A DNA stretch of 64,000 bases from Hormiphora californensis (lineage: Eukaryota; Animalia; Ctenophora): NCBI GenBank assembly GCA_020137815.1, contig CM035354.1:7316001-7380000 (forward strand). Direction: 5' to 3'. The position numbers were made by a program, and so were the translations under genes. A model generated the notes under the pieces. The model ran no database searches. It was not told where the DNA came from and saw nothing but the letters and a program-made list of their open reading frames with translations. Below, one piece after another: positions 6,156 through 63,224 of the stretch (position 1 is the stretch's first letter; the number at the start of each line of letters is the position of its first letter).

Positions 6156-8528
6156 TTAGGAAGAGGAGACAAAGTTTTTCATTTCATCCTTGAGATTTTT
6201 CACCTCTTCTTTGGAGATTTTTCCATCCAGCCACTTCTCAGATTTCCCAGCAAACCTATACCAAACATCCCGTTGTACCCCAAACTTGATTTCCAACAAA
6301 ACCAGAGCCAGAACAGTTGCTACGATGTCCTCTGCAAAGTTACTAGCTGCCGTCAGCTCTCCCAACTTAAACACAGCCCTAATCTTGGCAAGATCAGTAA
6401 AGCGACCCTTCGTATCGGCCAGGTCCATCAGCTCGGTAAGTTGATCACCGGGTTCATTTTTACTTGGACCACACAACTCCTTGCTAACTGATCGATAAGA
6501 TCGGGAACTTCTCGAACTACTATCCTCTAACATGGATGCACGGTCCGACGAACCTGAGACAGATGAAGATTCATCATCCATGGCATCATCAATCATGGCA
6601 CACTTCATCATTTCCGGACTCGCATCTCTACAGAGAAGACCTCTCACAGGTGCTGACTTCTTCTTTTTCCTAAAGAGACCTCCGAAAGAGGGCAATCCGA
6701 AGCCCCTACTTCGACCATATCCTACAACGGGGTTTCCGCCACTTAACGCCATCGCTTTTAAGTGCATTATTTCAAACTCATCAAGGTGCATATTATCTGT
6801 TTTGAGTAGCATATTAGCAGTAGTAGTGACATCCCCATCAACACAAACGAAGGAGGTTTCCTTGGTAACCACCTGGTAGTTAAGAGCCAACTCAACTCCT
6901 CTCCCTTCACTGACAACACCTCCAGTAGCCACCTTGTGGGCAACCAACTTGGGCATCTTGCCAGAGTGCACCTGGACAAAGTTTCCACTGGTCACTGTAT
7001 GTTTACTACCCGAACAATGGACAGTAATTTCAGCTGGTAGGGTGGGTGTGAGGGTGTACAGGACAGTTTTCTCTCCAGTGAACAGGGTCACGGGTACAGG
7101 TGGGGTGAGGGATTCCTGACCCTCCATCTCGACACAACTAATTTCAGATCGGTTCGCACAAGCACACGACAGCATTCTGATCACTTTCTCCCTCATTGGT
7201 TCCTTGGAAGTACAGAACAATTGGATCCCATCTCCTGCCTCTGCCATACCTTTTACCAGTTCCCGGGAGACCACACATCACCATACCCAAACTGAACACA
7301 CACATTTGTCTTTGTTGGATCTGTTTTTAATGGTCTTAATGACTTTCTCAGTATTACTAACAGCTCCGTCAGTGAGAATTAGAATCTGTCGTTCATAATC
7401 TTTTTCATAACTCCATGCCAGTACTTTTTTCAGTGGTTCCAGGATTTCAGTTCCACCCAAATCAGCGTGGACAGACTCTTCAATGTACTTTTTTGCCCTT
7501 TTCAGCGTTTCATCGTTATACTGGAGAGACTTGCTCGTCATGACTTCGTAGGAACTTCCAAAACGAATTATGTTAAAGTAGCAGTCCTCAGGAAGGGACT
7601 GAATGAACACCCGCATAGCTTCTTTTGCCTTTTTAATGCAATCGCCAGTCATGGAACCAGAACAGTCGACAATAAAGACAAACTCACACAACCGGTCCTT
7701 GGCGTGCGTCTCAGGGATGAACGACATCATGAGAGCAACTTCTCCCTGCTCTGTGTTTTCATACAGTACAACAGGTAGCAGGGGGTCATCACACTCCAGC
7801 GTGAGCACAAAATCCCGGTCAAGAAGTGAGGTGAAGTCCTCCAGAGTCCCCCCTGCACAGAACCACCCCTCCTCAGAATGTTGAGTAACTTCCACCTTGT
7901 GAGAGGGTGAGGTGATATTCTTGATTTCACTCCTCATTTTAATCTGGAACCCAATGGAGAGGGGCACATCTCCAGTGTACTGCATGTTCATTAGTCCCAC
8001 CACCGGGTCAGGTGCACTAGCTGGGATGTATCGTGGTGCTATGCTGGTAGGTAGGTGAAACGGGTTAGGAGATCCTGGAAAGGTAACTCCTGGATGTAAC
8101 ATATCTCTATCTGACACGTTTCGTTCGATCCCAGATTACCAACCATCAATTCCATGATGTCGGGCTTCAGTTCCTCCAATAAAAACGCAGTCTGTCCCTG
8201 CCTGACCGCATCGGAAAACTCCTCCCGAGCCACTTCCTTCTTTTTTACAACACCACTTAGTTTCCGGTCCCCGATGGTGGCGGTAAATTTGTGGAGGGCA
8301 ACGTACGTCTCCGTGGGAAAGAAGTAGACACAATTGAGTGGGTCAGGGGAGTTGTTGAGGTACGTCTGAGTAAGCTTCACCTCTGCCGCACAGAATGTGA
8401 TGTCTATTTCCGCGGCGACATGTGTCAAAGGGATTCCAATAGCTTGGTTCTCATGTTTAACCACTAGACCGCACTTCAACAACCCCCAGATTTCCATCTT
8501 GGAGCTTCACTTTGTTCGCAAACGGCAT
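6156..8528 (-). CDS. VWA5A: VWA5A-like protein (VIT + vWA domains), copy 1; apparently intronless, with frameshifts
   Basis: VIT domain (YLNNSPDPLNCVYFFP...FTATIGDRKLSGVVK..AREEFSDAV) and vWA MIDAS (FVFIVDCSGSM, GGTEI, ILILTDG) are split over ORFs 8039-8497, 7278-8117 and 6156-7274 by small indels. Confidence 0.85.
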
Positions 8529-9750: not shown

Positions 9751-11856
9751 TTAGGAAGAGGAGACAAAGTTTTTCATTTCATCCTTGAGATTTTTCAACT
9801 CTTCTTCGGGATTCTTTCCATCCAGCCACTTCTCAAGATTTTTCCAGCAAACCTATACCAACCACCCGTTGTACCCCAAACTTGATTTCCAACAAAACCA
9901 GAGCCAGAACAGTTGCTACGATGTCCTCTGCAAAGTTACTAATTGACTTCAGCTCTCCTAACTTAAACACTGCCCTAATCTTGGCAATATCAGTAAAGCG
10001 ACCCTTCGTATCGGCTAGGTCCATCAGCTCGGTAAGTTGATCACCGGGTTCGTCTTTACTTGGACCACACAACTCCTTGCTAACTGATCGATAAGATAGG
10101 GAACTTCGGGAACTTCTCGAACTACAATCCTCTAACATGGATGCACGGGACGAACAGTAGTAGTTAGCAGTAGTAGTGACATCCCCATCAACACACACAA
10201 AGGAGGTTTCCTTGGTAACCACCTGGTAGTTAAGAGCCAACTCAACTCCTCTCCCCTCACTGACAACACCTCCAGTAGCCACCTTGTGGGCCACCAACTG
10301 GGCATCTTGCCAGAGTGCACCTGGACAAGTTCCCACTGGTACTGTGTGTTTACTACCCGAACAATGGACGTAATTTCAGCTGGTAGGTGGGCGTGAGGTG
10401 TACAGACATTTTCTCTCCGTGAACAGGGTCACGGGTACAGGTGGGGTGAGGGATTCCTGACCCTCCATCTCGACACAACTAATTTCAGATCGGTTCGCAC
10501 AAGCACACGACAGCATTCTGATCACTTTCTCCCTCATTGGTTCGTTGGAAGTACAGAACAATTGGATCCCATCTCCAGCCTCTGCCATACCTTTTACCAG
10601 TTCCCGGGAGACACCATCACCAATACCCAAACTGAACACACGACATTTGTCTTTGTTGGATCTGTTTTTAATGGTCTTAATGACTTTCTCAGTATTACTA
10701 ACAGCTCCGTCAGTGAGAATTAGAATCTGTCGTTCATAATCTTTTTTATATTTCCATGCCAGTACTTTTTTCAGTGGTTCCAGGATTTCAGTTCCACCCA
10801 AATCAGCGTGGACGGACTCTGCAATGTACTTTTTTGCCTTTTTCAGCGTTTTATCGTTGTACTGGACAGACTTACTCTCATGACCTCGTAGGAACTTCCA
10901 AAACGAATTATGTTAAAGTAGCAGTCCTCAGGAAGGGACTGAATGAACACCCGCATAGCTTCTTTTGCCTTTTTAATGCAATCCCCATTCATGGACCCAG
11001 AACAGTCGACAATAAGACAACTCACCACAACCGGTCCTTGGCGTCGTCTCAGGGATGAACGACATCATGAGAGCAACTTCTCCCTGCTCTGTGTTTTCAT
11101 ACGTACAAGAGGTAGCAGGGGGTCATCACACTCCAGCGTGAGCACAAAATCCCTGTCAAGAAGTGAGGTGAAGTCCTCCAGAGTCCCCCCTGCACAGAAC
11201 CACCCCTCCTCAGAGTGTTGAGTTAACTTCCACCTTGTGAGAGGGTGAGATGATATTCTTGATCTCACTCCTCATTTTATCTGGAACCCAATGGAGAGGG
11301 GCACATCTCCAGTGTACTGCATGTTCATTAGTCCCACCACCGGTCGGTCACTAGCTGGATGTTCGTGGTGCTGCTGGTAGGTAGGGTGAAACGGGTTAGG
11401 AGATCCTGAAAGGTAACCCTGGATGTAACATATCTCTATCTGACACGTTTCATTCGATCCTAGATTACCAACCATCAATTCCATGATGTCGGGCTTCAGT
11501 TCCTCCAATAAAAATGCAGTCTTTCCCTGCTTGACCGCATCGGAAAACTCCTCCCGAGCTACTTCCTTCTCTTTTACTACACCACTTAGTTTCCGGTCCC
11601 CGATGGTGGCGGTAAATTTGTGGAGGGCAACGGACGTCTCCGTGGGAAAGAAGTAGACACAGTTGAGTGGGTCAGGGGAGTTGTTGAGGTATGTCTGAGT
11701 AAGCTTCACCTCTGCCGCACAGAATGTGATGTCTATTTCCGCAGTTACGTGTGTCAAAGGGATTCCAATTGCTTGGTTTTCATGTTTAACCACTAGACCG
11801 CACTCAACAACCCCCAGATTTCCATCTTGGAGCTTCACTTTGTTCGCAAACGGCAT
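9751..11856 (-). CDS. VWA5A: VWA5A-like protein, copy 2 (more indels; C-terminal segment deleted relative to copy 1)
   Basis: Near-identical to 6156-8528, including flanks; ORF fragments 11272-11856, 10843-11028, 10376-10801 and 9833-10336. Confidence 0.8.
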
Positions 11857-12450
11857 CCTGTCTCATATAAAACATAAAATATACCTACAGGGGTGAGGGT
11901 ACAATTCGTTAAAAAGAATTAGTTAATACTTTCGGAGAATGGGACAGATATTCGGACTCAAAGAAGTTTCTAAGCTCGGGATAAACCAACAACGAAATCT
12001 CAGCAATGTTAAACTAATATGTCACAGAATTAAAGATAGAAATTAATATACACATTATCCATATTTACACACAGTCTGCTAAAATAACAATAACAAAAAC
12101 ACTCGAATAAACTTAAAACATGCAATGATTAAATTTGTAAACTGCTCTGAAACTGTCCTTAACTGTCCTTAACTGTCCCTAGTAGGGACTCCCTAGCTGT
12201 GTTAATTGCCTTCGATATTGTTCACTATAGCCTGTTTTTATAATCCACACTGTCCTTGAGTCATTCCATAATGTCGTATGTAATACTCATAAAATATGTT
12301 CTGCCGTCCTCAAATCATGTTTTGCCGTCCTCAAATCATGTTCTGAACGTGTTTAACAAATGGATACTTTTCCTGAGGGTAGGGTGTGCCAATTAATGAC
12401 CAATCAATGACTAATGAGCCAACGATTAACAATTAATTAGGGCCATGCCA

Positions 12451-24487: not shown

Positions 24488-26797
24488 ACGAGATACAACT
24501 GCGACGGTGTTGGTGGGCATCCATACTGGCGTGTTTCTAGCACTGGTGATAGGGGCAGTAGTGGTGGATCAAACGGAGGACATGGCTTTGGCAGGGTGGG
24601 CCCTGGTCATGGCCCTTGCTGCTGAAGTCATCATGAAGATCACCATGGAGATATTCACTGTGGCAACCACGAGGGATTGGATTCTAGAGGTAACTGGGGG
24701 TAACTAGGGGGTAACTAGGGGTATCCAATACCACCAGGGATTATATTCTAGAGGTAACTATGTGGTAACTAGGGCCTGGGGTAAAATTTGAAAAAAGATA
24801 TATGTCATGACGTTCTGCTTTCCATATCATTAAAAAGTGACGGTCTGGCATTAAAATAATCTTGAACTCTAGGACTCTAGAAGATACTAGGATACTTGAC
24901 ATTTATGTCAGGAGTCTAGACCACTTAGTGCTCTGCAACTAATAGGCATTTGAAGGGTACAGATGGCGGCTCGTTGAACTGCTTGTACTACATGTTGTGC
25001 AGTAAAATATAGAAAGAGAGATTGACAGGTAAAATTCAAGGGAGTGTCGGAGGGGGGGGGGGTAAGCCGGTAGGGGTGACCGTTGTCTAGACCACACCTA
25101 GGTATTGCGATATGAACCAATACCTTCTGGAACCATCCATAGCAATCGATCCCCTTCATCTAATGTGATCCTGACGTCAACATTACTAAACCATTCACTC
25201 ACCCATTTAACCAAATTAGTTCATCATGATGATGCATCATCTCTCTCTGAAATGTCTCTCTCGCTCTCCGTCTCTCTCTTTCCATCTCTAGCTTTCAAGT
25301 CACCATCATAACGTCATTTTAAAAGCCACTATAAGTGATTCTTTGCTAATTTAAGCAATTGGTCACCCTCAACATCTCAAATCCTATCCCATTTAGAGAT
25401 TCCCCCCCCCCCCCCGAGATCTTCTAGAACCTTCTGATCATGTCATCTGACTCAAGAAACATATAACCCCCTCTAATCACCTCCTGCTAATCTCACCTAC
25501 TGACCTTGATGTTATCTTGTCTCACCTTCCCTTCCTAACAGATATCAGATAACGACTCAGAACAGATGGTGACAGGAAACACATGGTACTACATAATGGC
25601 TGTCACTATTCCGGGCCTCATGACCCTCGGGGGAAACTACCTGTTTGATGAAAACTTGGGGGGAATCACAGGTATAATAGTGACAATGCTCTGAGTCTGA
25701 CCGCAGCTTTCCCGCTGTCAGGCCAACCATCAATGCTCTGACAGACATAGCGTGACGTCACAGATTTAAAGAGAGAAATGACGTCATAACTGTTAGTTGT
25801 CAGACAACTAATAGTTGATCGAAACGTGGGAATCAAGCTGTCAGGCCAATTCCCTGATCGCGGTTCTCGCTCCTTATTTGAAAGAAACGAGAATATTTAC
25901 CCTTATTTAGTAAAACTAATACTCAATAATCCTTCCCTCCCAGGTATCGTGTTGACTCTGGGAGCAACAGCCATCCTCCTCCAACTGCTAGCCCTAGCTG
26001 GAATCATCTTTATAATCGGCCCTCAACGCTCCAACCTAGATCACCATGCCCCCTCCCTACCACACAACAACTACAAATACTTCTTCTCCATGCCTGCCTG
26101 GGAGCTCTCCCTGGGACTTGATGTCGAGAGTGTGGGACTCATCTCATTCGGCCTCTTCATGAGGATGTTCCTAGCACACAAGGGTGTCACCCCCTACACC
26201 ATCTCAGTTCTGTTATTCCTTCAGTCTGCAGCTGCTGTTATTGCAGCCCTCTTCTTCCCTGCCATCAGGAGGTTCTGTCAGGACGGATACGTGCTGATGC
26301 TGTGTGTAGTTGGGAAGATTGTATTCGCTGCTGTTTTCCTGTTTGTGGTACTAAAACAAACCTACCAAAGTGAGATCGAGGATGCGGTGGTGATCATCAC
26401 CCACGATGCCATCTTCATTGATTTGGAGAGTGTGTTACCCCAGGATAACACTATTCTAACTGCTACCATCATGGTCAGCAGTGTGCTGCTAGCCATGTTC
26501 TGTCAAGTGGACACCCTCTCATCCAACCAGATTATCCAGGAGTCCATCCTGGATGGAAACAGGGGACAATACGCTTCCGCAGAGTTCTCCTTCAAGTACA
26601 TTTTCACGCTGATCAAACAAATGTGTATTGCCTGCATTGCCTTTGAGTCTCTGTTCATGGTGCTCCTGGTGCTCACTTTTGTGTGTGAACTGGTGAAACT
26701 GTTTCTGGTCGTGAAGTGGGTGTTGAGGAGTCGGAATGCGAGGTTTGGGGATGTGGACGAAATAAAACTTGAAAAGACAAGTCTAATGGCTAGCTAG
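24488..26797 (+). CDS. Divergent ferroportin-like (SLC40 family) MFS transporter; 5' exons unresolved
   Basis: Exons 24488-24689, 25542-25671 and 25944-26797 splice in phase. Motifs TVATTRDWILE (cf. ITIQRDWIVV) and DTLSSNQIIQESILDGNRGQYASAEFSFKYIF (cf. [32 protein letters not shown]); many TM helices. Confidence 0.75.
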
Positions 26798-27390
26798 TAG
26801 GACCGGGTAAATTGGGAGTTTTTTTAATTTGTATCATCGCAGTTTGTGTATATGATCCGTCATAGAAAGTAGTTGTTTTGTTCAAACCTTGGCGTGAGAC
26901 AGGGCAAGAAGTTAGTTGCATGAAAGGACTATAATGTTAGGACTATGTTAGAGCTACATTTGATAACCCAGACGTCTGGACCATTGTCTAGACACTAATT
27001 TGTCTGGTCTCCATTTTGTGAGGGATGTTTATGACTTCGAACCGGGACATAAACCAGACCCGTCTCGAAGAGAATGATCATGGGACGTGATATCATGTCT
27101 ATTGAAGTTGTTTTGTATGGTGCTATTTATTGTGCCAGTTCTGTAGAAGATGTTCGTGTTCAATATGGCTCAAGGAGGAAAACATATCACACTTCAATAC
27201 GTGTTGCACCACGTGGCATGCACACAATAGTGTTCCCATATTATGCTCCCATTGTGTCGAACGTTTCCCACCACTATTTCAATTCATTTCCACCATTAAT
27301 CCCCAAAAAGATGGGCTGAAAAGGGGACAGGATGTGACCATGAACATTGGACAAAACGCCACTATATTTCCGGGGTATTACAATAGTTAA

Positions 27391-27440
27391 TCACGTGATA
27401 TATTTGTTGCCAAAAATAGCCACCTATTCGATCTATAAAA
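27391..27440 (+). promoter_or_regulatory. Putative promoter of precursor gene 1: TCACGTGA E-box and TATAAAA
   Basis: TCACGTGA at 27391-27398 and TATAAAA at 27434-27440, about 85 bp before the ATG; same layout before gene 2. Confidence 0.55.
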
Positions 27441-27522
27441 CCGAGAAAGCAAAAACTGTTTATTCATCAACTTTGTAAACCATTTTACTCATAAACCACT
27501 GATCGTGATCCCTGCTTTAACT

Positions 27523-28851
27523 ATGCTGAAGCTACTGGTTCTAATCTCTACTGTCGGATTCTGTCTTGCAGAAAATGAAGAAACGTAAGCTTTCATTCTA
27601 TTGAATACAATTTACGTGACTCACTACATGTTACCATTACTTCAGACGGGATACTTGATTACTATAACTATCGGATAGTTTACTAGTTCAAACACAAATG
27701 ATGTTTCTATAATTACAGGTTGGATAAGAGGGCATCGTGCAGTATCATTGAGAGTGGTGGTAATGCTAGGTTTTACCCAGTTGATTCTGTAATTCAGGTA
27801 AATCGGATGCTGGTGGATAGGGGTGGGAGTAATCTCGGGTTCTGGGGGTAAAGGGGAGTATACCTTCCCGACGCGAACTACCATTTATTGTCCACACCCC
27901 ACGGCGGAGTATTCTAGAAGTAGATAACCACTAGATAACCACTAGATAACCACTATACTAAACCAGATACCCTGTACCTCTCAAATCTAAAATCTCAAAT
28001 ATCTTTAAATAGATGGGGCAAACAGAGTTGTGTCAGTGTCGAAGTTCTGGAACTTTCCGATGTCGTCATTCGAGCAGGATCGCTAAGAGGTGGATCGAGG
28101 AGGAGGAAATGTAAGAGAGAGAGGGAGCTAATTTAGTTTCTGCAGAATCACCCTACCCTACCTACGTCATTCAATATTCTTTTTAACCGTCCTGCCGCGA
28201 CTAGAAATACCTTATATAATTACTTCGGTACCTGCTAAAAGCAAAATCCTAATCCCTTTAATAATATAATTCCTGCTAAATACGAATGTATAAACTCGAT
28301 TACTAAAATCCGGCTATATTAATTTTAACCTCTACAGGGAGCAACATATATTTATATTTTCTAACCTCTGATCCCTATAACAGGGAGACAGCTGAAGTGG
28401 AGAAGAGGGCATCTTGTGTGATGATTGAGGAGGGAGGAAGGAGTAGGAGCTACCCTGTTGACTCCATAATTCAGGTACAGCACATTATGACACCACTACC
28501 AGTCTCGAATGTTTCCTTCTGGGGGTATAACATCGTTCCTGGGGGAGGAGAGGGTACGGTTAAATAGCTGTAAATTTATACTGGGGTGAATTCTAGTTTC
28601 TTGGTAATTTGTCTGCTACCAGTAAAATATCCATTTTAGGGTTGATTTAGGAGATTTACCCCCCTCTTTAGAAACCTTGTTGGGATACGGGCCACCCGAC
28701 ATTCCTTACTCAACATATTTAACCCATATTCCCTCATCAGATGAGCCAGACGGAGAAATGTCAATGCAGAAGTTCTGGAACATTCCGTTGTCGTGATTCT
28801 ACCAATAAGCGACCTAGTATCGACAAGAGATGGCCCCGATATGGGTTTTAA
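27523..28851 (+). CDS. Secreted Lys-Arg-processed precursor 1 (146 aa) with two 4-Cys modules
   Basis: Five exons (27523-27584, 27719-27797, 28013-28110, 28384-28474, 28741-28851), all GT-AG and phase-consistent: MLKLLVLISTVGFCLA-ENEETLD-KR-ASCSIIESGGNARFYPVDSVIQMGQTELCQCRSSGTFRCRHSSRIA-KR-WIEEEEMETAEVE-KR-ASCVMIEEGGRSRSYPVDSIIQMSQTEKCQCRSSGTFRCRDSTN-KR-PSID-KR-WPRYGF*. Confidence 0.88.
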
Positions 28852-29358
28852 ACAATAACCCATGAACAATTTAACTTTATATAAAGCCCTAAAAATTGGA
28901 CAGTACGCATCTTTCATTTACAGTGCATGTAATTGTGTAGTAATTTATCATACAGTTCAATATACTCCCTCCCTTGTGAAACATTGTGAGCGTTCCATTG
29001 TCCCCCCAGAAAACAAAAGGGGCCAGGATAAAGGGGGCAGGATAAAGGTGCCCCAAATTGTCCCAGCTGCTGCAGCTCCCTTATTAAATATGTGCATCAT
29101 ATGGTGGGTTACAAAGTCAAAAAGCTCTTGTTCTCTGGACAAAGTTGGTTGGACCCTAACATCCGTTTCCGCAGAATCCATCTTCTCTTTTCTCCTTTCA
29201 TATTCGTATTCCCTCTCTCTCTGTCTATCTCATCATCCTCTCTTTCTCTCTCTTTCTATCTTATCATCCTCTCTCTCTTTCTCTTCTTGGTGGAGCTACT
29301 TCTTGTTCAACAATGGCGCCCCGGGGCGGATATGCGTGCGCAACGAGAACATGGACCT

Positions 29359-29427
<69 letters not shown>

Positions 29428-29571
29428 AAAGGATAGAGATACAAGAACTACTTGGAGAAGAAGAGTTCAGTGCGAACAAAAGAGCTACTTGAAAAGGAAG
29501 GGGGACCAGGAGGAGTAGCACGTGCACAGTGAGCCCCCTCCTCTTGTTGTCGCCCCACCCGGATATTTACA

Positions 29572-29604
29572 TCACGTGACATGCCACCCTGCAACCCATA
29601 TAAA
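29572..29604 (+). promoter_or_regulatory. Putative promoter of precursor gene 2: TCACGTGA E-box and TATAAA
   Basis: TCACGTGA at 29572-29579 and TATAAA at 29599-29604, about 90 bp before the ATG. Confidence 0.55.
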
Positions 29605-29693
29605 TCATCCCAAGCATCCCTAGCACCTCAATTCAATCCCAATACTTGTTTACTCAGTTTCATATCAAGCCTCCGGCCCCCCACTTCTCCAAA

Positions 29694-31107
29694 ATGTTCA
29701 AGATTCTTGTTGCTGTTTCGGTGGTTCTCTGTGTGGTTAGTGCCCTTCCTGCCAAGAGGAGCGTGGACATGGATGATGATGACATGTGAGTAACTGAGAG
29801 AGTAAAATATCAATCTTTGCTAGGCAATCTTGAGAACTGCTACCTAATATTCCGAGCTAAAATCGACCGCGGCGCACGTTTTCTTCTCTGCCATTTGATC
29901 GTTCATTCTTTCATTCATTCTTTCCTCAAAATATACCTACGCTGCTAAAATAAGACCTGTCATCCATCCCTTCAATCTACATAACTAATATAACTATCAC
30001 TGTCTAATATTAGTCAAATGATCTTGCTGTCTAAGTGTCATATAAATATAGACCGTCTATTTTTAGAAGACATCATTGAAAATTACCTAAAAATGGTTGG
30101 CTATAAAAATATTGTCTAATAAAAATGAAATATTGACAACCACTTAACCAAACCGCTCTCTTATCAAACAAAATTCTATTAATAGGAGTGTGAGAGTATA
30201 CGAAAAATATTCCAATTCCTTAATTGGTCAATCTGTCAATTTCTCGATTAAGAGTTAAATCATTCGCTCCCTATAATTTCAATTTCCATAGTAACCCATG
30301 AATCTTCCTAAATGATCCCAAAATAACCCTAAATGATCCCTAAATTACCCCCTCTCTCACCTGCAGGGCTCTGCTCGAGGTTCTGGTAAGGGATGCTGCT
30401 AATGTTGAGAAGAGGTCAACCTGCCACATGATTGAGGGAGGAAGAGAGTACGCTGTTAACTCTGTTGTCCAGGTAACGGCTTTTAATCACCATGGTAACC
30501 ACGAGAGTTATCATTCCTGAACCATAGAATCAAATTCAAATCCCATTCTTTCAATCAGGTTTCCTGTAATGTGTGTCAATGTAAATCTTCAGGAAAATTC
30601 AACTGTACCCATCGAACGTGTGCTTAGGTAGCAAAATCGAGTGCCTTGCTTAGTGTATGATGCTAGCAAAATCGAGTGTTTTGCTTAGTGTGTGATGCTA
30701 GCAAAATCGAGTGTTTTGCTTAGTGTGTGATGCTAGCAAAATCGAGTGCCTTGCTTAGTGTGTACTTATGATGCTATTGAATTGGTATCAAAATCGAGTG
30801 CGTTGTGTGTTTTCTCTGCTTCAAACGATTTGCTACAAAAAGTGAAACGGGGGAGTGCCTTTCTCTCATCGTATCACAGATTATGTCATACTTCATTAAA
30901 TATCTTATGAGACATTTTTGAACTAGTGAACAGCTGAAGGGTGACGTGTGTGATTGTTTGAGTTTTATCGATTAGATTACCAACTCAACTTACCAAATAT
31001 CCTTGTCTTTAACTTACCAAATATCCTTGTATTTTCAGGTCAGTGGTAGCCGATTGTGTCAGTGCAGGTCAACAGGACAGTTCAGGTGCAGCGACGTCGG
31101 AAAATAG
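29694..31107 (+). CDS. Secreted precursor 2 with alternative last exons (6-Cys pacifastin-like or 4-Cys module)
   Basis: Exons 29694-29785 and 30367-30472 give MFKILVAVSVVLCVVSA-LPA-KR-SVDMDDDDMALLEVLVRDAANVE-KR-STCHMIEGGREYAVNSVVQ, then either 30559-30627 (VSCNVCQCKSSGKFNCTHRTCA*) or 31039-31107 (VSGSRLCQCRSTGQFRCSDVGK*). Confidence 0.85.
30629..30802. repeat. ~35-bp minisatellite (TAGCAAAATCGAGTGYYTTGCTTAGTGTRTGATGC), about 4 copies
   Basis: Direct tandem copies immediately after exon 3A. Confidence 0.9.
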
Positions 31108-46696: not shown

Positions 46697-48646
46697 TTAG
46701 ATCACGGAGTATGAGCCTCCATAGGTCTTCACAAAGAGATAGGTCTTCAGTTGCTTTTTGAAGAGATTAACAGTTTCCAGTTGCCGGATTTTTCTTGGCA
46801 GATTGTTCCAAATAACTGGACCAGCAATGGAAATTCCTCGTTCAGTGATTTTATGTCGCAGCTTTAGGTCACCATGAATCTTCTCCTCTAGCAAGGTTTT
46901 GTCGTTATTTGCACGAAGATTGACAGATTTTGGTCGACGTTTTTGGATCTCATTGGTTAAATAGTCAGGTGCATAACCATGAACAACTTGGTGCATCAAC
47001 AGACAGACCTTAAAGTGAATCCTAGCTTCAACTGGCAGAAAATGTAGCCATCGCCTGAGAGCCGTAACTCCTCTTCGCTTCTTCCATCCGAATATATACC
47101 TTGTAGCTGAATTTTGGATCTTCTGTAGTCTATTGAGTTGCTTTGCCGAAATTCCATTAAGAAGCGAATTACAGAAGTCAAGCTTGGAATGTATGAACAC
47201 ATTTACCATCCTTATCTTAGACTGCCAGTTCAGCATATCTCCTATCCTCCAAAGGTTGGTAAGGTAGCCCATGCATCCACGGACGACGTGAGATACGTGT
47301 TTCTCCATGCTAAGTTTTTCATCAAAGACCACCCCAAGATTTCTCGCCGACTCAACTGTGTCAGTCGGTGTTCCAAAGACAGTAAGTTTGGTTGGGCTTG
47401 GTTCACGATCGTATGCTGATCTTACTACCATCACTTCTGTTTTTCCTGAGTTTAGCATAAGGCGGTTTTTAGCCATCCATTTTTGTATATCAAGTAGGCA
47501 TCTGTTAATTTTTTCCTCGGTTGCAGCAAGCTCAGCATTCTTGAAAGAGCAGTAAAGCTGACTGTCATCAGCATACAGATGTAGCTTCATACCATGCAAC
47601 TGGACAATCTGCTCCAACTCCTTGGTGTACATTATGAACAGTATAGGACCAAGAATACTACCCTGTGGTACACCAATAGTTACTTCTCGGGGCGTTGAGG
47701 ATGCACTACCTATCTTCACAGACGATGATCTTCCTGTGAGGTACGATCTGAACCACTCCAGTGCTTTACCACCAATCCCATAGGTGTTACGAAGTTTCCT
47801 GAGTAGCCTTTCGTGGTCAATAGTATCAAACGCAGCGCTCAAGTCAAGCAACAAGAGCACTGCCTTAGAGTTATCATCTGTGAGGAGTAGCAAGTCATCG
47901 AGTATCTTTACAGTTGTGGTCTCAACACTATGACCCTTCCTATATGCTGATTGGAATCTACCTAGAAGGTTGTTTGTCTCCAGATATCCTGTCAGCTGAA
48001 GGGAGACAGCCTTTTCTATCACTTTTGAGATGAAACTTAAATTAGATACCGGTCGATAGTTTTTCAGATCTTCTTTATCGCCTTGCTTTAGTTTAAAAGA
48101 CGGTCTGACTTGAGCGACTTTAAGATTAGACGGAAAAACTCCACTGGCGAGACTGGTATTGACAATGTGGGACACCATCTCTATCAGCTCAGGTAGGAGG
48201 TTCGATATCATCGAGGTTGGGATCGGATCCAAGTCACAATGCTTATGCGCCATAGAACGGATAAGTTTGACTAGTTCCTCGTCTGTTAGTTTCTGGAACT
48301 CTTCAAATTTGCACTTTAGTACAGGATCGGGGATTTCAGGAGCAGGACCTAACCGTTCAGCATCTATCTCAATCTTCTCATAGATGTCGTCCACCTTCTT
48401 TTTAAAGTAGTCAGCAAAAGCCTCAGCCAGCTCTGCATCTTCCAACCCGCTAGGTTTCTCTGTCGGATTCTTAGTCCTCCCCAGAATAAAGTTCGTAAGA
48501 CGAAAAAAGGCTGCAGCATTGTTCTTGGATTCACTAATCTTCTTGTGGTAGAAATCACGCCTTGCAGTCTTGATAGTAGCAGTGGCTTCTACGTTCGCTT
48601 TTTTCAGTTCATAAAGAGCTGTCAAAATATCACGTTGAGTTTTCAC
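46697..48646 (-). mobile_element. 5'-truncated non-LTR retrotransposon (L2/CR1 group) with open RT domain
   Basis: 649-aa ORF with YRPVSNL, QSAYRKGHSVET, LLDLSAAFDT, GVPQGSILGP, YADD and SKLDFCNSLL; no endonuclease domain. Confidence 0.92.
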
Positions 48647-49771
48647 CGTTTTTCATCGTTTTTCAAGCTTTAAATTGGTAAAAATAAGTGTTTAAGTACT
48701 TCAAAGACACCTTTCGCCTGATTTTAGGCCGGAAGATACGTTTACGTTCACGTTTTTGATAAAAAAAAAACGACCAAAAACAACTTTCCGAAGAAAGAAA
48801 AATAAAAAAGCAAACGCGAACGGACTAGGACCATTTTTTATAAAAAACTTACTTTCACTGCGCGCAAAAATGCAGCGCTTAAATCTATTTTTGGCGCGTC
48901 ACAAACAATGCCATGCTTTTTTAACTTTCAGAATCCAGGAACCTTTTTTTTTAAAGTTTTGTTTTTTGTTTTTTTAAAGTTTTGTTTTTTGTTCCTTTTT
49001 ATAATTTTAACTTTTTACGGTTTTTTGAAGACTTATAAAGTAAACTCTATTCTTTGGCTTCAAAAGTGCCGCCTTATTCCCTTTCAGAAAGGTCTGTAGC
49101 ATATGCCAAGTCCTGCAGTAACGTTAGAGGGGTCTGTAGCATCACTAGCATGCCTGTAGCAACGTTGGAGGGGACTTAATTTCAGCTTCAGCGTATCATA
49201 AGTTCCAACTTTGGCCGGTAGTGACTAGGTTTTATCCCTACAAGACCGGATCTGTAGCATATGCTAAAAGCAACCAAAGGCTAGGCGTTGACAGAAGTTT
49301 CTACGAGGGAATTCTGGTCGAAGATGGATTTGGAAGTATTTGAGTTTTTTCAACTCTCAAGCTGAAACCAACACAACGCGTTAAAACGGAAGTCCTATCT
49401 TAATTGAGTGCTAAATATGGAGAAGGGGTCATTCACACCACTAGTGACGTACACCACGGGAGGGATGAGTAAAGACCAGACAGCACGAGAGTTCACTTGT
49501 TCAAGTTTCAATCAGTTACGAGTTTCAATCAGTTGCGAAAGTGTGAGTTGCGGCGACAGGCTCCCCTAAACCAAGATAATGATATGCTGTTGGCCTAGGA
49601 ATATGGCAGTTGGACATTTCTTTCTTTCTTTTTTTGGATGTGCACCCAAACTGCGATTGTTTGCTCTGCAACGGTCCCTGTTTAGTCGTGTGATATTTGT
49701 GATAATGATATTTGAATCACGAAGTTTTCTAATAAAATTTTCATTGTAGGGTAGCATGGACTAAACAAGCG

Positions 49772-61565: not shown

Positions 61566-63224
61566 CACGGTGCACTAGAAGGATCGTCAACCCAAAGTTG
61601 AGCCCGCAAAACAAACTTTTGTTGGGGGTGACCCAGGAGGCCTTCCTGAACATCCCCACGGTGAGAAAAGTATATGTTATCGGGGGAAATTTTTGTTAAA
61701 ATCGAAAAAACTGGTTTTTGGTCCAAATTTGTGCATAACTTACTTGACTGCCGTTTGATGAAATATGTGATTGACATAAAATAAGTATACAAGACCTATT
61801 TTTGCACGAAGAATCGATTGCCGGTGGAGAGAAATCTCTAAAATGACCGGAAAGTTGTCAAATATGGGAATTTTGTCATTTTTTTGAGGTTTTTGGCCCT
61901 TTAACCATTGAAAACGTTGAGATAGGAAGTTGGCAATAGCGCCAATCGTTAAAATGGTCATTTTTCTACGGGATCCCAAAATTTCATGTATATCCGATTT
62001 ATGGTTAGATTTTGGCAAACTATTGAGATGTGCTTACTGAAAAAAGGATAACTTGATTTTCTCGTTTTTTGCGATTTTTTAACTTTTGAAAGAATTCTGA
62101 TTGAAATGGCCAATCAGGGCCATGCTAAAGTTGTTTATGGGACAATTTTCGACCAAAATCCAAGATTTCATGCAAATCCAATGACAGATCATTGATTTAT
62201 AGAAAGTTGAAATAGGCAAAAAAGGCCAATTTTTACCATGAAAACAAAAATACACATTTTTTTTCTTGTCAATTTCCATTAACAACTGGTACGGGTACCT
62301 AGGTAGGGTCCCTACCTATTTTTTGCACGTAGAATCGATTGCCGGTGGAGTGGATCCTCTTAAATGATTGGAAAGCGGTCGAAATGTCATTTTTTGGAAG
62401 TTTTTGGACCTCCAAAAAATGGCATTTTGACCGCTTTTCCAATCATTTAAGAGGATCCACTCCACCGGCAATCGATTCTACGTGCAAAAATAGGTAGGGT
62501 ACCAGTTGTTGATGGAAATTGACAAGAAAAAAATGTGTATTTTTGTTTTCATGGTAAAAATTGGCCTTTTTTGCCTATTTCAACTTTCTATAGATCAATG
62601 ATCTGTCATTGGATTTGCATGAAATCTTGGATTTTGGTCGAAAATTGTCCCATAAACAACTTTAGCATGGCCCTGATTGGCCATTTCAATCAGAATTCTT
62701 TCAAAAGTTAAAAAATCGCAAAAAACGAGAAAATCAAGTTATCCTTTTTTCAGTAAGCACATCTCAATAGTTTGCCAAAATCTAACCATGAATCGGATAT
62801 ACATGAAATTTTGGGATCCCGTAGAAAAATCACCATTTTAACGATTGGCGCTATTGCCAACTTCCTATCTCAACGTTTTCAATGGTTAAAGGGCCAAAAA
62901 CCTCAAAAAAATGACAAAATTCCCATATTTGACAATTTTCCGGTCATTTTAGAGATTTCTCTCCACCGGCAATCGATTCCTCGTGCAAAAATAGGTCTTG
63001 TATACTTATTTTATGTCAATCAGATATTTCATCAAACGGCAGTCAAGTAAGTTATGCACAAATTTGGACCAAAAACCAGTTTTTTCGATTTTGACAAAAA
63101 TTTCCCCCGATAACATATACTTTTCTCACCGTGGGGATGTTCAGGAAGGCCTCCTGGGTCACCCCCAACAAAAGTTTGTTTTGTGGGCTCAACTTTGGGT
63201 TGACGATCCTTCTGGTGCACCGTG
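61566..63224. mobile_element. 1.66-kb foldback (near-perfect palindrome) DNA transposon, CACGG termini, 4-bp TSD (Chapaev/CMC-like, tentative)
   Basis: ACCA|CACGGTGCAC...GTGCACCGTG|ACCA; ~830-bp arms mirrored about a ~10-bp spacer near 62400-62410; mirrored ORFs in the track (61740-62018 vs 62772-63050). Confidence 0.85.

Follow-up and report, generated by a model that had tools for sequence, protein, structure and literature searches.

Can a single gene make two structurally different secreted peptides by ending its message in one of two alternative half-domains? The question is raised by a small gene, here called gene 2, on the plus strand of a 64,000-nt stretch of the Hormiphora californensis genome (the window). 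The coding part of its exon 1 (29694..29785) carries a leader, a first Lys-Arg (KR) site, and an acidic spacer, as read from its translation and an RNA joint at 29785-30367. Exon 2 (30367..30472), which is RNA-covered and common to both forms, carries a propeptide, a second KR, the first cysteine (Cys1, C1), and a Gly/Tyr hairpin half, and ends at 30472 in a phase-0 donor (CAG/GTAACG). Two possible last exons follow. Exon 3A (30559..30627), a candidate alternative last exon, encodes the C2-C6 half of a six-cysteine long-loop module of the pacifastin-like/E type and ends in a TAG stop. Exon 3B (31039..31107) encodes a three-cysteine half that completes a four-cysteine module and ends in Gly-Lys-stop. 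Both are phase 0, span 69 nt including TAG, and follow a CAG acceptor, which confirms the twin last exons behind one upstream exon proposed in a sequence-only reading of this DNA. Pyrimidines fill 12 of 17 acceptor positions for 3A and 11 of 17 for 3B; five other RNA-supported acceptors have 10-14.

Alignment indicates that 3A and 3B are homologous twin last exons. They share 18 of 69 nucleotides without gaps and 29 of 66 after a one-codon shift, 3B having one more codon before the CxC and one fewer after it. The equal length of the two exons is accidental because these indels offset each other. Equal length was accordingly rejected as evidence of a clean duplication. The core of 3B is nearer to the tandem paralogue, gene 1 (9 of 11 residues), than to 3A (7 of 11). 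A degenerate family pattern, built from the four exon-3-type pieces themselves, occurred at four places in the window and in none of 100 shuffles. The pacifastin C-terminal motif occurred once in the six frames of the window and in none of 40 simulated windows.

When the exons were joined in a script, the 3A form had six cysteines with gaps of 18, 2, 1, 7, and 4 residues, and the 3B form had four with gaps of 22, 1, and 7. Exon 2 gives Cys1, to which 3A adds five cysteines and 3B three. C2 and C6 are exactly the cysteines absent from the 3B form, and 3B and the gene 1 modules all lack C2, Asn, Thr, and C6. The expectation that one cysteine pair separates the two forms, as in gene 1, was therefore borne out.

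Either gene 2 precursor has 88 residues: a hydrophobic leader, then an acidic spacer bounded by two KR sites, and finally a peptide of 41 residues. Its product is likely secreted, the signal peptide having been called by eye from the translation, and cleavage at Lys-Arg is predicted to release the 41-residue peptide. The two predicted 41-mers are identical over their first 19 residues. A Gly-Lys-stop end is an amidation signal, and the 3B peptide is predicted to be amidated. The second KR reads ER in the RNA contig of run X1 (Lys-to-Glu, window 30410), so this cleavage site is not fixed. The same contig differs at seven places in exon 1 (29735-29751 region), and its differences would represent either an allele or an unseen paralogue.

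Which of the two forms is transcribed? RNA data consisted of the assembled contigs of three runs (X1, X2, and X3), X1 and X2 coming from one study. Joints 29785-30367 and 30472-31039, both with GT..AG ends, are present in X1 and X2 contigs alike. The 3B joint has a depth of 31 and 3.4, and cover reaches 31210 in X1. In other words, the four-cysteine form is the demonstrated RNA product of gene 2. The joint between exon 2 and 3A (30472-30559) is absent from the contigs of all three runs, and no contig covers the bins over 30488-30719, which include 3A. Nothing of gene 2 was found among X3 contigs, which is no proof of absence. Likewise, zero cover of 3A cannot be equated with absence, since contigs lose rare variants. 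Alternative use of 3A and 3B was thus supported for the 3B joint, seen in two runs, but not for the 3A joint, and the claim that both forms are made went further than contigs in which 3B alone appears. Four-cysteine modules make up three of the four modules in both genes; all three are transcribed, and the six-cysteine one is unseen in contigs.

One RNA-library contig lies between the two last exons. It is unspliced and 151 nt long (30776..30926, plus strand), has a depth of 6 and no differences from the window, and occurs in X1 only. It lies within the intron of 3B, just 3' of a 35-bp tandem array (30629..30763, plus strand, 3.9 copies) with its start at the stop of 3A. An ATTAAA hexamer is found inside it at 30895, and no second full copy of its sequence is present in the window. 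The contig possibly represents the 3' UTR of 3A, of which it gives a weak hint. However, its length is one read length, it has no poly(A) loose end, and it may instead derive from pre-mRNA, from DNA, or from a repeat located elsewhere. In a 4.8-kb control, no high-identity contig lay on non-exonic DNA among the records listed, outside of which there were four further records. As a separate observation, the unit of the 35-bp array repeats the final bases of 3A (30619-30763), as if the array had grown from the exon end.

Gene 1 (27523..28851, plus strand) has exons at 27523-27584, 27719-27797, 28013-28110, 28384-28474, and 28741-28851. Its 146-residue precursor contains two KR-flanked four-cysteine modules with gaps of 25, 1, and 7. 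RNA joints span introns 2, 3, and 4; the one over intron 3 is interpreted as 28110-28384 carrying a single base substitution. A loose end also leads from exon 1 into exon 2. A search of its sequence with the family pattern found no 3A-type exon. Both genes are preceded on the plus strand by a CACGTG E-box upstream of a TATAAA (27392-27439 for gene 1; 29573..29604 for gene 2), a promoter-like arrangement whose function in gene 2 is presumed from its sequence. Of 15 CACGTG sites, 2 have a TATAAA 15-45 nt downstream on the plus strand, those of genes 1 and 2 alone, which suggests that the two peptide genes may be co-regulated. The last exon of gene 1 (28741-28851) has two further KR sites that would yield a 4-residue spacer and a 6-residue aromatic tail starting Trp-Pro-Arg, with a neuropeptide-like look.

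To what class does the 3A form belong? PMC2689174 gives the conventional pacifastin as C1-x9-12-C2 followed by C2-Asn-x-C3-x-C4-x2-3-Gly-x3-6-C5-Thr-x3-C6, with disulfides 1-4, 2-6, and 3-5. The C2-C6 part of this pattern is present in 3A in full. Furthermore, the signal peptide and dibasic sites of conventional pacifastins are present in gene 2, the signal being called by eye and the second KR altered in one RNA allele. The 3A exon alone (22 aa) matched Pfam PF05375 with an E-value of 3.7e-4 and 20.6 bits, below the 27.9 cut-off, and all nine matches at E<=10 in a PDB sequence search were pacifastins (best E 0.085). These results uphold the pacifastin likeness first seen by eye. A model of 3A alone, built without the real N-terminal half of the module, gave one hairpin at pLDDT 60; pacifastins came first among its matches, but the best (E 0.87, TM 0.42) was not significant. 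Pfam fn1 matched no exon piece. The C1-C2 gap of 18 falls outside the conventional 9-12. It had been noted as unusual, and the number is right, but it is not anomalous because an "ancestral" pacifastin-like class, as described in PMC13388995, has a Gly- and aromatic-containing hairpin extension of 13-20 residues between C1 and C2. The extension of the 3A form has 18 residues, including Gly-Gly and Tyr. That source also looks for models with a TM-score of at least 0.5 and the right disulfide topology, and the poor 3A-only model, which lacks its real N-terminal half, reached 0.42. As pacifastin pairing joins cysteines 2 and 6, the 3B form lacks the C2-C6 disulfide.

Long-loop modules collected from metagenomes place this class in a wider context. 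The six-cysteine motif is carried by 31 metagenome loci that look bacterial from their GC content (0.42-0.75) and long open frames, no formal classification having been made. An upstream cysteine was present in 29 modules, 28 of which had gaps of 9-22 and were kept (26 distinct); the C1-C2 gap was 15-18 in 25 of the 29. Nine of ten long-loop modules passed the Pfam Pacifastin cut-off, all ten also matched Pfam VWF, and several matched VWC or FnI_RECK. A profile of these modules likewise matched VWF 829-864 and mucins (MUC5B) beside pacifastins. A long-loop module used as a stand-in for the ctenophore peptide folded at pLDDT 92 and had the six-cysteine, two-sheet fold of an E module along its full length. 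It matched VWF/mucin E modules (VWF, MUC2) with TM 0.75-0.85 over 33-37 columns, E modules together with the first VWC subdomain (2mhp, 6n29, 8d3c, 7pov, 5nir) with TM 0.69-0.85 over 33-40 columns, fibronectin F1 modules with TM 0.65-0.68, and pacifastins with TM up to 0.67 over about 30 columns. All of these structure matches have E above 0.001 and describe the stand-in, not the ctenophore peptide itself. Since the modules match all these families in profile and structure, the long-loop class represents a shared pacifastin/E/VWC/FnI fold, which has both inhibitory and non-inhibitory members. The "ancestral pacifastin" class of the literature and the E/VWC module may be largely one and the same. 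Several individual loci (L002, L004, L007, L028, and others) score alike on Pacifastin, VWC, VWF, and FnI_RECK.

Would the 3A form be an inhibitor? By the numbering of PMC13388995, its P1-P1' residues are His-Arg, in line with the earlier prediction. Section 14 of PMC2689174 names trypsin, chymotrypsin, and elastase classes of P1 specificity and does not include His there, and the P1 His of 3A lies outside these three types. The same source reports 17 different P1 residues among predicted pacifastin members. The inhibition by non-metazoan homologues is described in PMC13388995 as not validated in vitro. It had also been proposed that splicing toggles the disulfide clamp on one inhibitory loop. 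However, 3B puts a different sequence in place of the loop and terminates in Gly-Lys-stop. A division into inhibitor and non-inhibitor is hypothetical because the stand-in fits E modules best, P1 is His, and 3B swaps the whole loop. The claim that 3A is an inhibitor was not supported, as long-loop modules are at least as close to VWF/mucin E modules as to pacifastins. That the 3A form, if made, inhibits a serine protease is a tentative possibility against which we lean.

Is 3A maintained? It retains its acceptor, its open frame, and the full series C, N, C, C, G, C, T, C. Over the 11-codon core, 4 of the 7 residues that 3A shares with 3B, and 3 of the 8 that it shares with each gene 1 exon, are encoded by different codons; the counts are tiny, and simulated sequences needed more than about one substitution per site to reach this codon divergence. 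The probability that simulated neutral decay left the acceptor, frame, and motif of 3A in place was 0.63 at 0.02 substitutions per site, 0.32 at 0.05, 0.11 at 0.1, 0.013 at 0.2, and 0.002 at 0.3. An intact motif despite the synonymous divergence argues that 3A has been constrained through most of its history; its recent death is possible. Between the two genes, synonymous divergence is lower in the exon-2 halves (1 of 10 and 2 of 10). Further evidence comes from a profile of the N-terminal halves of the 26 distinct long-loop six-cysteine modules, a half that lay outside the search pattern. The mature part of gene 2 exon 2 scored 11.6 bits on it, and none of 2000 shuffles scored as high. The gene 1 N-halves, which are three residues longer and belong to four-cysteine modules alone, were equalled by 184 and 104 of 2000 shuffles. 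The score on the corresponding C-half profile is circular, as the pattern was drawn from 3A. Because of the N-half fit, the shared exon 2 still looks shaped for a six-cysteine partner. Most likely, selection has retained 3A as an alternative exon of minor or cell-specific use.

The half-domain splice swap in gene 2 is accordingly plausible and unproven, with the balance tipping slightly towards it. The fuller model, in which one shared exon and a choice of 3A or 3B give a four-cysteine 3B product and a kept alternative with the ancestral six-cysteine module, the four-cysteine forms acting as ligands, stands evenly poised between right and wrong. Gene 2 would feed the regulated secretory pathway, in which a convertase would release a small disulfide-bonded beta-sheet peptide. 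Its default product would be the amidated four-cysteine peptide (3B), and use of the proximal acceptor (3A) together with a proximal poly(A) site would yield the six-cysteine product. In the 3A form there would still be the disulfide-pinned C-terminal loop of an ancestral long-loop pacifastin/VWF-E-type module. The four-cysteine forms (3B and both gene 1 modules) would have derived from such a module by C2-C6 loss, yielding a two-disulfide, FnI-like beta-sheet miniprotein. We infer the four-cysteine state to be derived because outgroup modules have six cysteines, and the main job of the family would be independent of the C5-C6 loop because all transcribed modules seen have four. Most likely, as a best guess, the four-cysteine forms serve in signalling or defence as released ligands of a surface partner and are not canonical inhibitors, a role to which the precursor architecture alone points.

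A simpler explanation is that 3A is an ancestral exon that has fallen silent or died recently and that gene 2 makes the four-cysteine 3B peptide with no switch at all. This would account directly for RNA in which the 3B joint stands alone at depths of 31 and 3.4 over zero cover of 3A, and for a gene 1 with no 3A-type exon; a motif surviving at 0.05-0.02 substitutions per site would be unremarkable if decay were recent. However, an acceptor, frame, and motif left intact against marked synonymous divergence, a shared exon that still fits a six-cysteine hairpin, an unspliced contig just behind 3A, and the loss of rare variants from contigs all weigh against this, and we regard silence as rather unlikely.

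If 3A is in use, it might act as the sequence-only reading supposed, with both forms made, 3A inhibiting serine proteases in the canonical pacifastin manner and 3B lacking such activity. Every C2-C6 pacifastin feature of PMC2689174 is present in 3A; the PF05375 match and the PDB sequence matches to pacifastins alone agree with this, as do a signal and dibasic sites like those of insect pacifastin precursors and the missing C5-C6 loop of 3B. The missing 3A joint in RNA contigs, the P1 His outside the trypsin, chymotrypsin, and elastase classes, the match of the class to non-inhibitory VWF/mucin E modules, and the lack of in vitro validation for non-metazoan homologues noted in PMC13388995 weigh against it, and it seems improbable. 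A last option turns on the weak donor that had been noticed after 3A and that does exist (TAG/GTAGCA, directly after the stop). Through it, 3A could be a cassette before 3B whose role is to alter the 3' UTR or to serve as a poison exon, with no useful second peptide resulting. RNA-supported donors of these genes are also varied (GTACAG, GTAACG). On the other hand, GTAGCA is not among the closest donor-consensus matches in 30628-31038, the joint 30627-31039 was not seen in RNA contigs, and a poison exon has no need of five cysteines, all of which makes a cassette very improbable. Because the stop precedes the donor, such use would alter the UTR alone and leave the same six-cysteine peptide; cassette use as the source of a third peptide was ruled out on the same ground.

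How does the preferred reading, a kept choice between 3A and 3B, compare with known systems? Like the ancestral pacifastin-like domains of PMC13388995, the 3A form has six cysteines, C2-Asn, Gly in the C4-C5 loop, and a long C1-C2 extension. In that source, however, dibasic release is an arthropod feature and the six-cysteine scaffold is called invariant, whereas here a solitary long-loop domain is KR-flanked and three of four modules have four cysteines. Ctenophores are not named in its text or in the two supplementary files that were term-searched. Insect pacifastins (PF05375; SGPI/PMP) share with gene 2 the signal peptide, dibasic sites, and C2-C6 motif, but their gap is 9-12, not 18, and P1 His sets gene 2 apart. 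The closest precedent for the splice choice is Tribolium tcpp-1, in which alternative acceptors pick between two stop-ended last units, as proposed here (PMC2689174). There, the exchange involves whole six-cysteine domains; in gene 2 it involves half of one and alters the number of cysteines. Trichoplax tapp-1 (same source) also splits each domain over two exons, but in a 3+3 arrangement of cysteines, compared to 1+5 here. VWF/mucin E modules and the first VWC subdomain, whose likeness was seen through the stand-in, belong to giant matrix proteins, whereas the gene 2 product is a predicted free processed peptide.

Fibronectin type I modules have four cysteines paired 1-3 and 2-4. Under pacifastin pairing, 3B and the gene 1 modules, which keep C1, the CxC, and C5, would have this same 1-3/2-4 arrangement (compare PDB 3cal). 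The likeness of the four-cysteine forms to FnI is drawn from spacing, and descent from fibronectin is not claimed. Gene 2 also resembles the predicted disulfide-rich neuropeptide precursors of ctenophores in having a signal peptide, dibasic processing, and a short disulfide-rich product (bioRxiv 2021.03.31.437758); that study set disulfide-rich precursors aside.

What would follow? The feature of gene 2 is real and represents a variation on a known fold. Tribolium already offers a case in which splicing selects among terminal pacifastin domains (PMC2689174), and the half-domain version was not found in the literature searched. It is unlikely that one gene uses a shared N-terminal hairpin to build two products, a pacifastin/E-type peptide with three disulfides and a functional reactive loop, and an amidated FnI-like ligand with two disulfides. 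If true, a single locus would catch the six- to four-cysteine step of the fold, and convertase release of pacifastin-like peptides would occur in the earliest-branching animals, against the view of it as an arthropod innovation. The locus extends long-loop pacifastin-like domains to ctenophores as KR-flanked peptides, none of which was found in the literature searched, and bears on a 2026 "liberation" model that ties dibasic processing to arthropods. The transcribed four-cysteine derivatives indicate that a scaffold held to be invariant can survive the loss of its C2-C6 pair. Should 3A be spliced, the two 41-mers would form a natural, cheaply synthesised pair with which to probe if long-loop domains are protease inhibitors in the first place and what the relationship of pacifastin, VWF-E/VWC, and FnI modules is. 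Without use of 3A, the genes would be an ordinary lineage-specific family of secreted peptides.

Searches for relatives were largely negative. No ctenophore pacifastin or half-domain swap was found in the literature searched; subscription papers and bioRxiv supplements on Pleurobrachia secretory peptides may already hold these genes. A term search of a Mnemiopsis immune-gene preprint found no mention of pacifastin. Protein, profile, and metagenome searches found no relatives of the exon halves in other ctenophores. A protein search with the exon 2 region (31-102 aa) gave no candidate, an exon-3 profile (75-2000 aa) gave 11 candidates with none at E<=10, and a metagenome scan with exon-2 patterns gave 54 pattern matches with none confirmed. 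The ESM Atlas held no usable match for 3A and coiled-coil look-alikes alone for a neighbour, and a PDB sequence search with either family profile returned zero matches. A tree of exon-3 halves (23 columns) was uninformative, with unsettled bootstrap and branch lengths of 10. A profile of the three exon-2 halves, run against 1.84 billion representatives, gave two matches, one of which, a plant repeat protein (E 1.4e-4), was judged spurious. The other is a chimeric Pleurobrachia bachei model (sb/3467768) without 3A or 3B. It is 99.5% identical over 209 residues to a membrane gene of the window, also includes exon 4 of gene 1 together with exon 1 of gene 2, and fuses three genes corresponding to window 26090-29786, the peptide genes being mis-annotated there. 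This model is uninformative on 3A because it is fused and lacks both last exons. A read-through product as the origin of the fused model was rejected, as RNA gives separate spliced genes.

The membrane protein gene itself (25790-26797) lies directly upstream of gene 1 and has a weak ferroportin match (PF06963, E 2.6e-5, below cut-off). A neighbouring TBC gene has best relatives at 60% identity, with the next named group at 44%; these best relatives cluster with Bolinopsis and Mnemiopsis proteins. A vWA-domain gene is present as a tandem duplicate on the minus strand (6156-8506 and 9833-11862), with blocks that are 94-96% identical and a second copy that looks fragmented. A 651-aa open frame on the minus strand (46697-48652) resembles a LINE reverse transcriptase. 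Finally, an inverted repeat with arms of 698 nt (61566-62263 and 62527-63224) is 99% complementary, with 263 nt between the arms.
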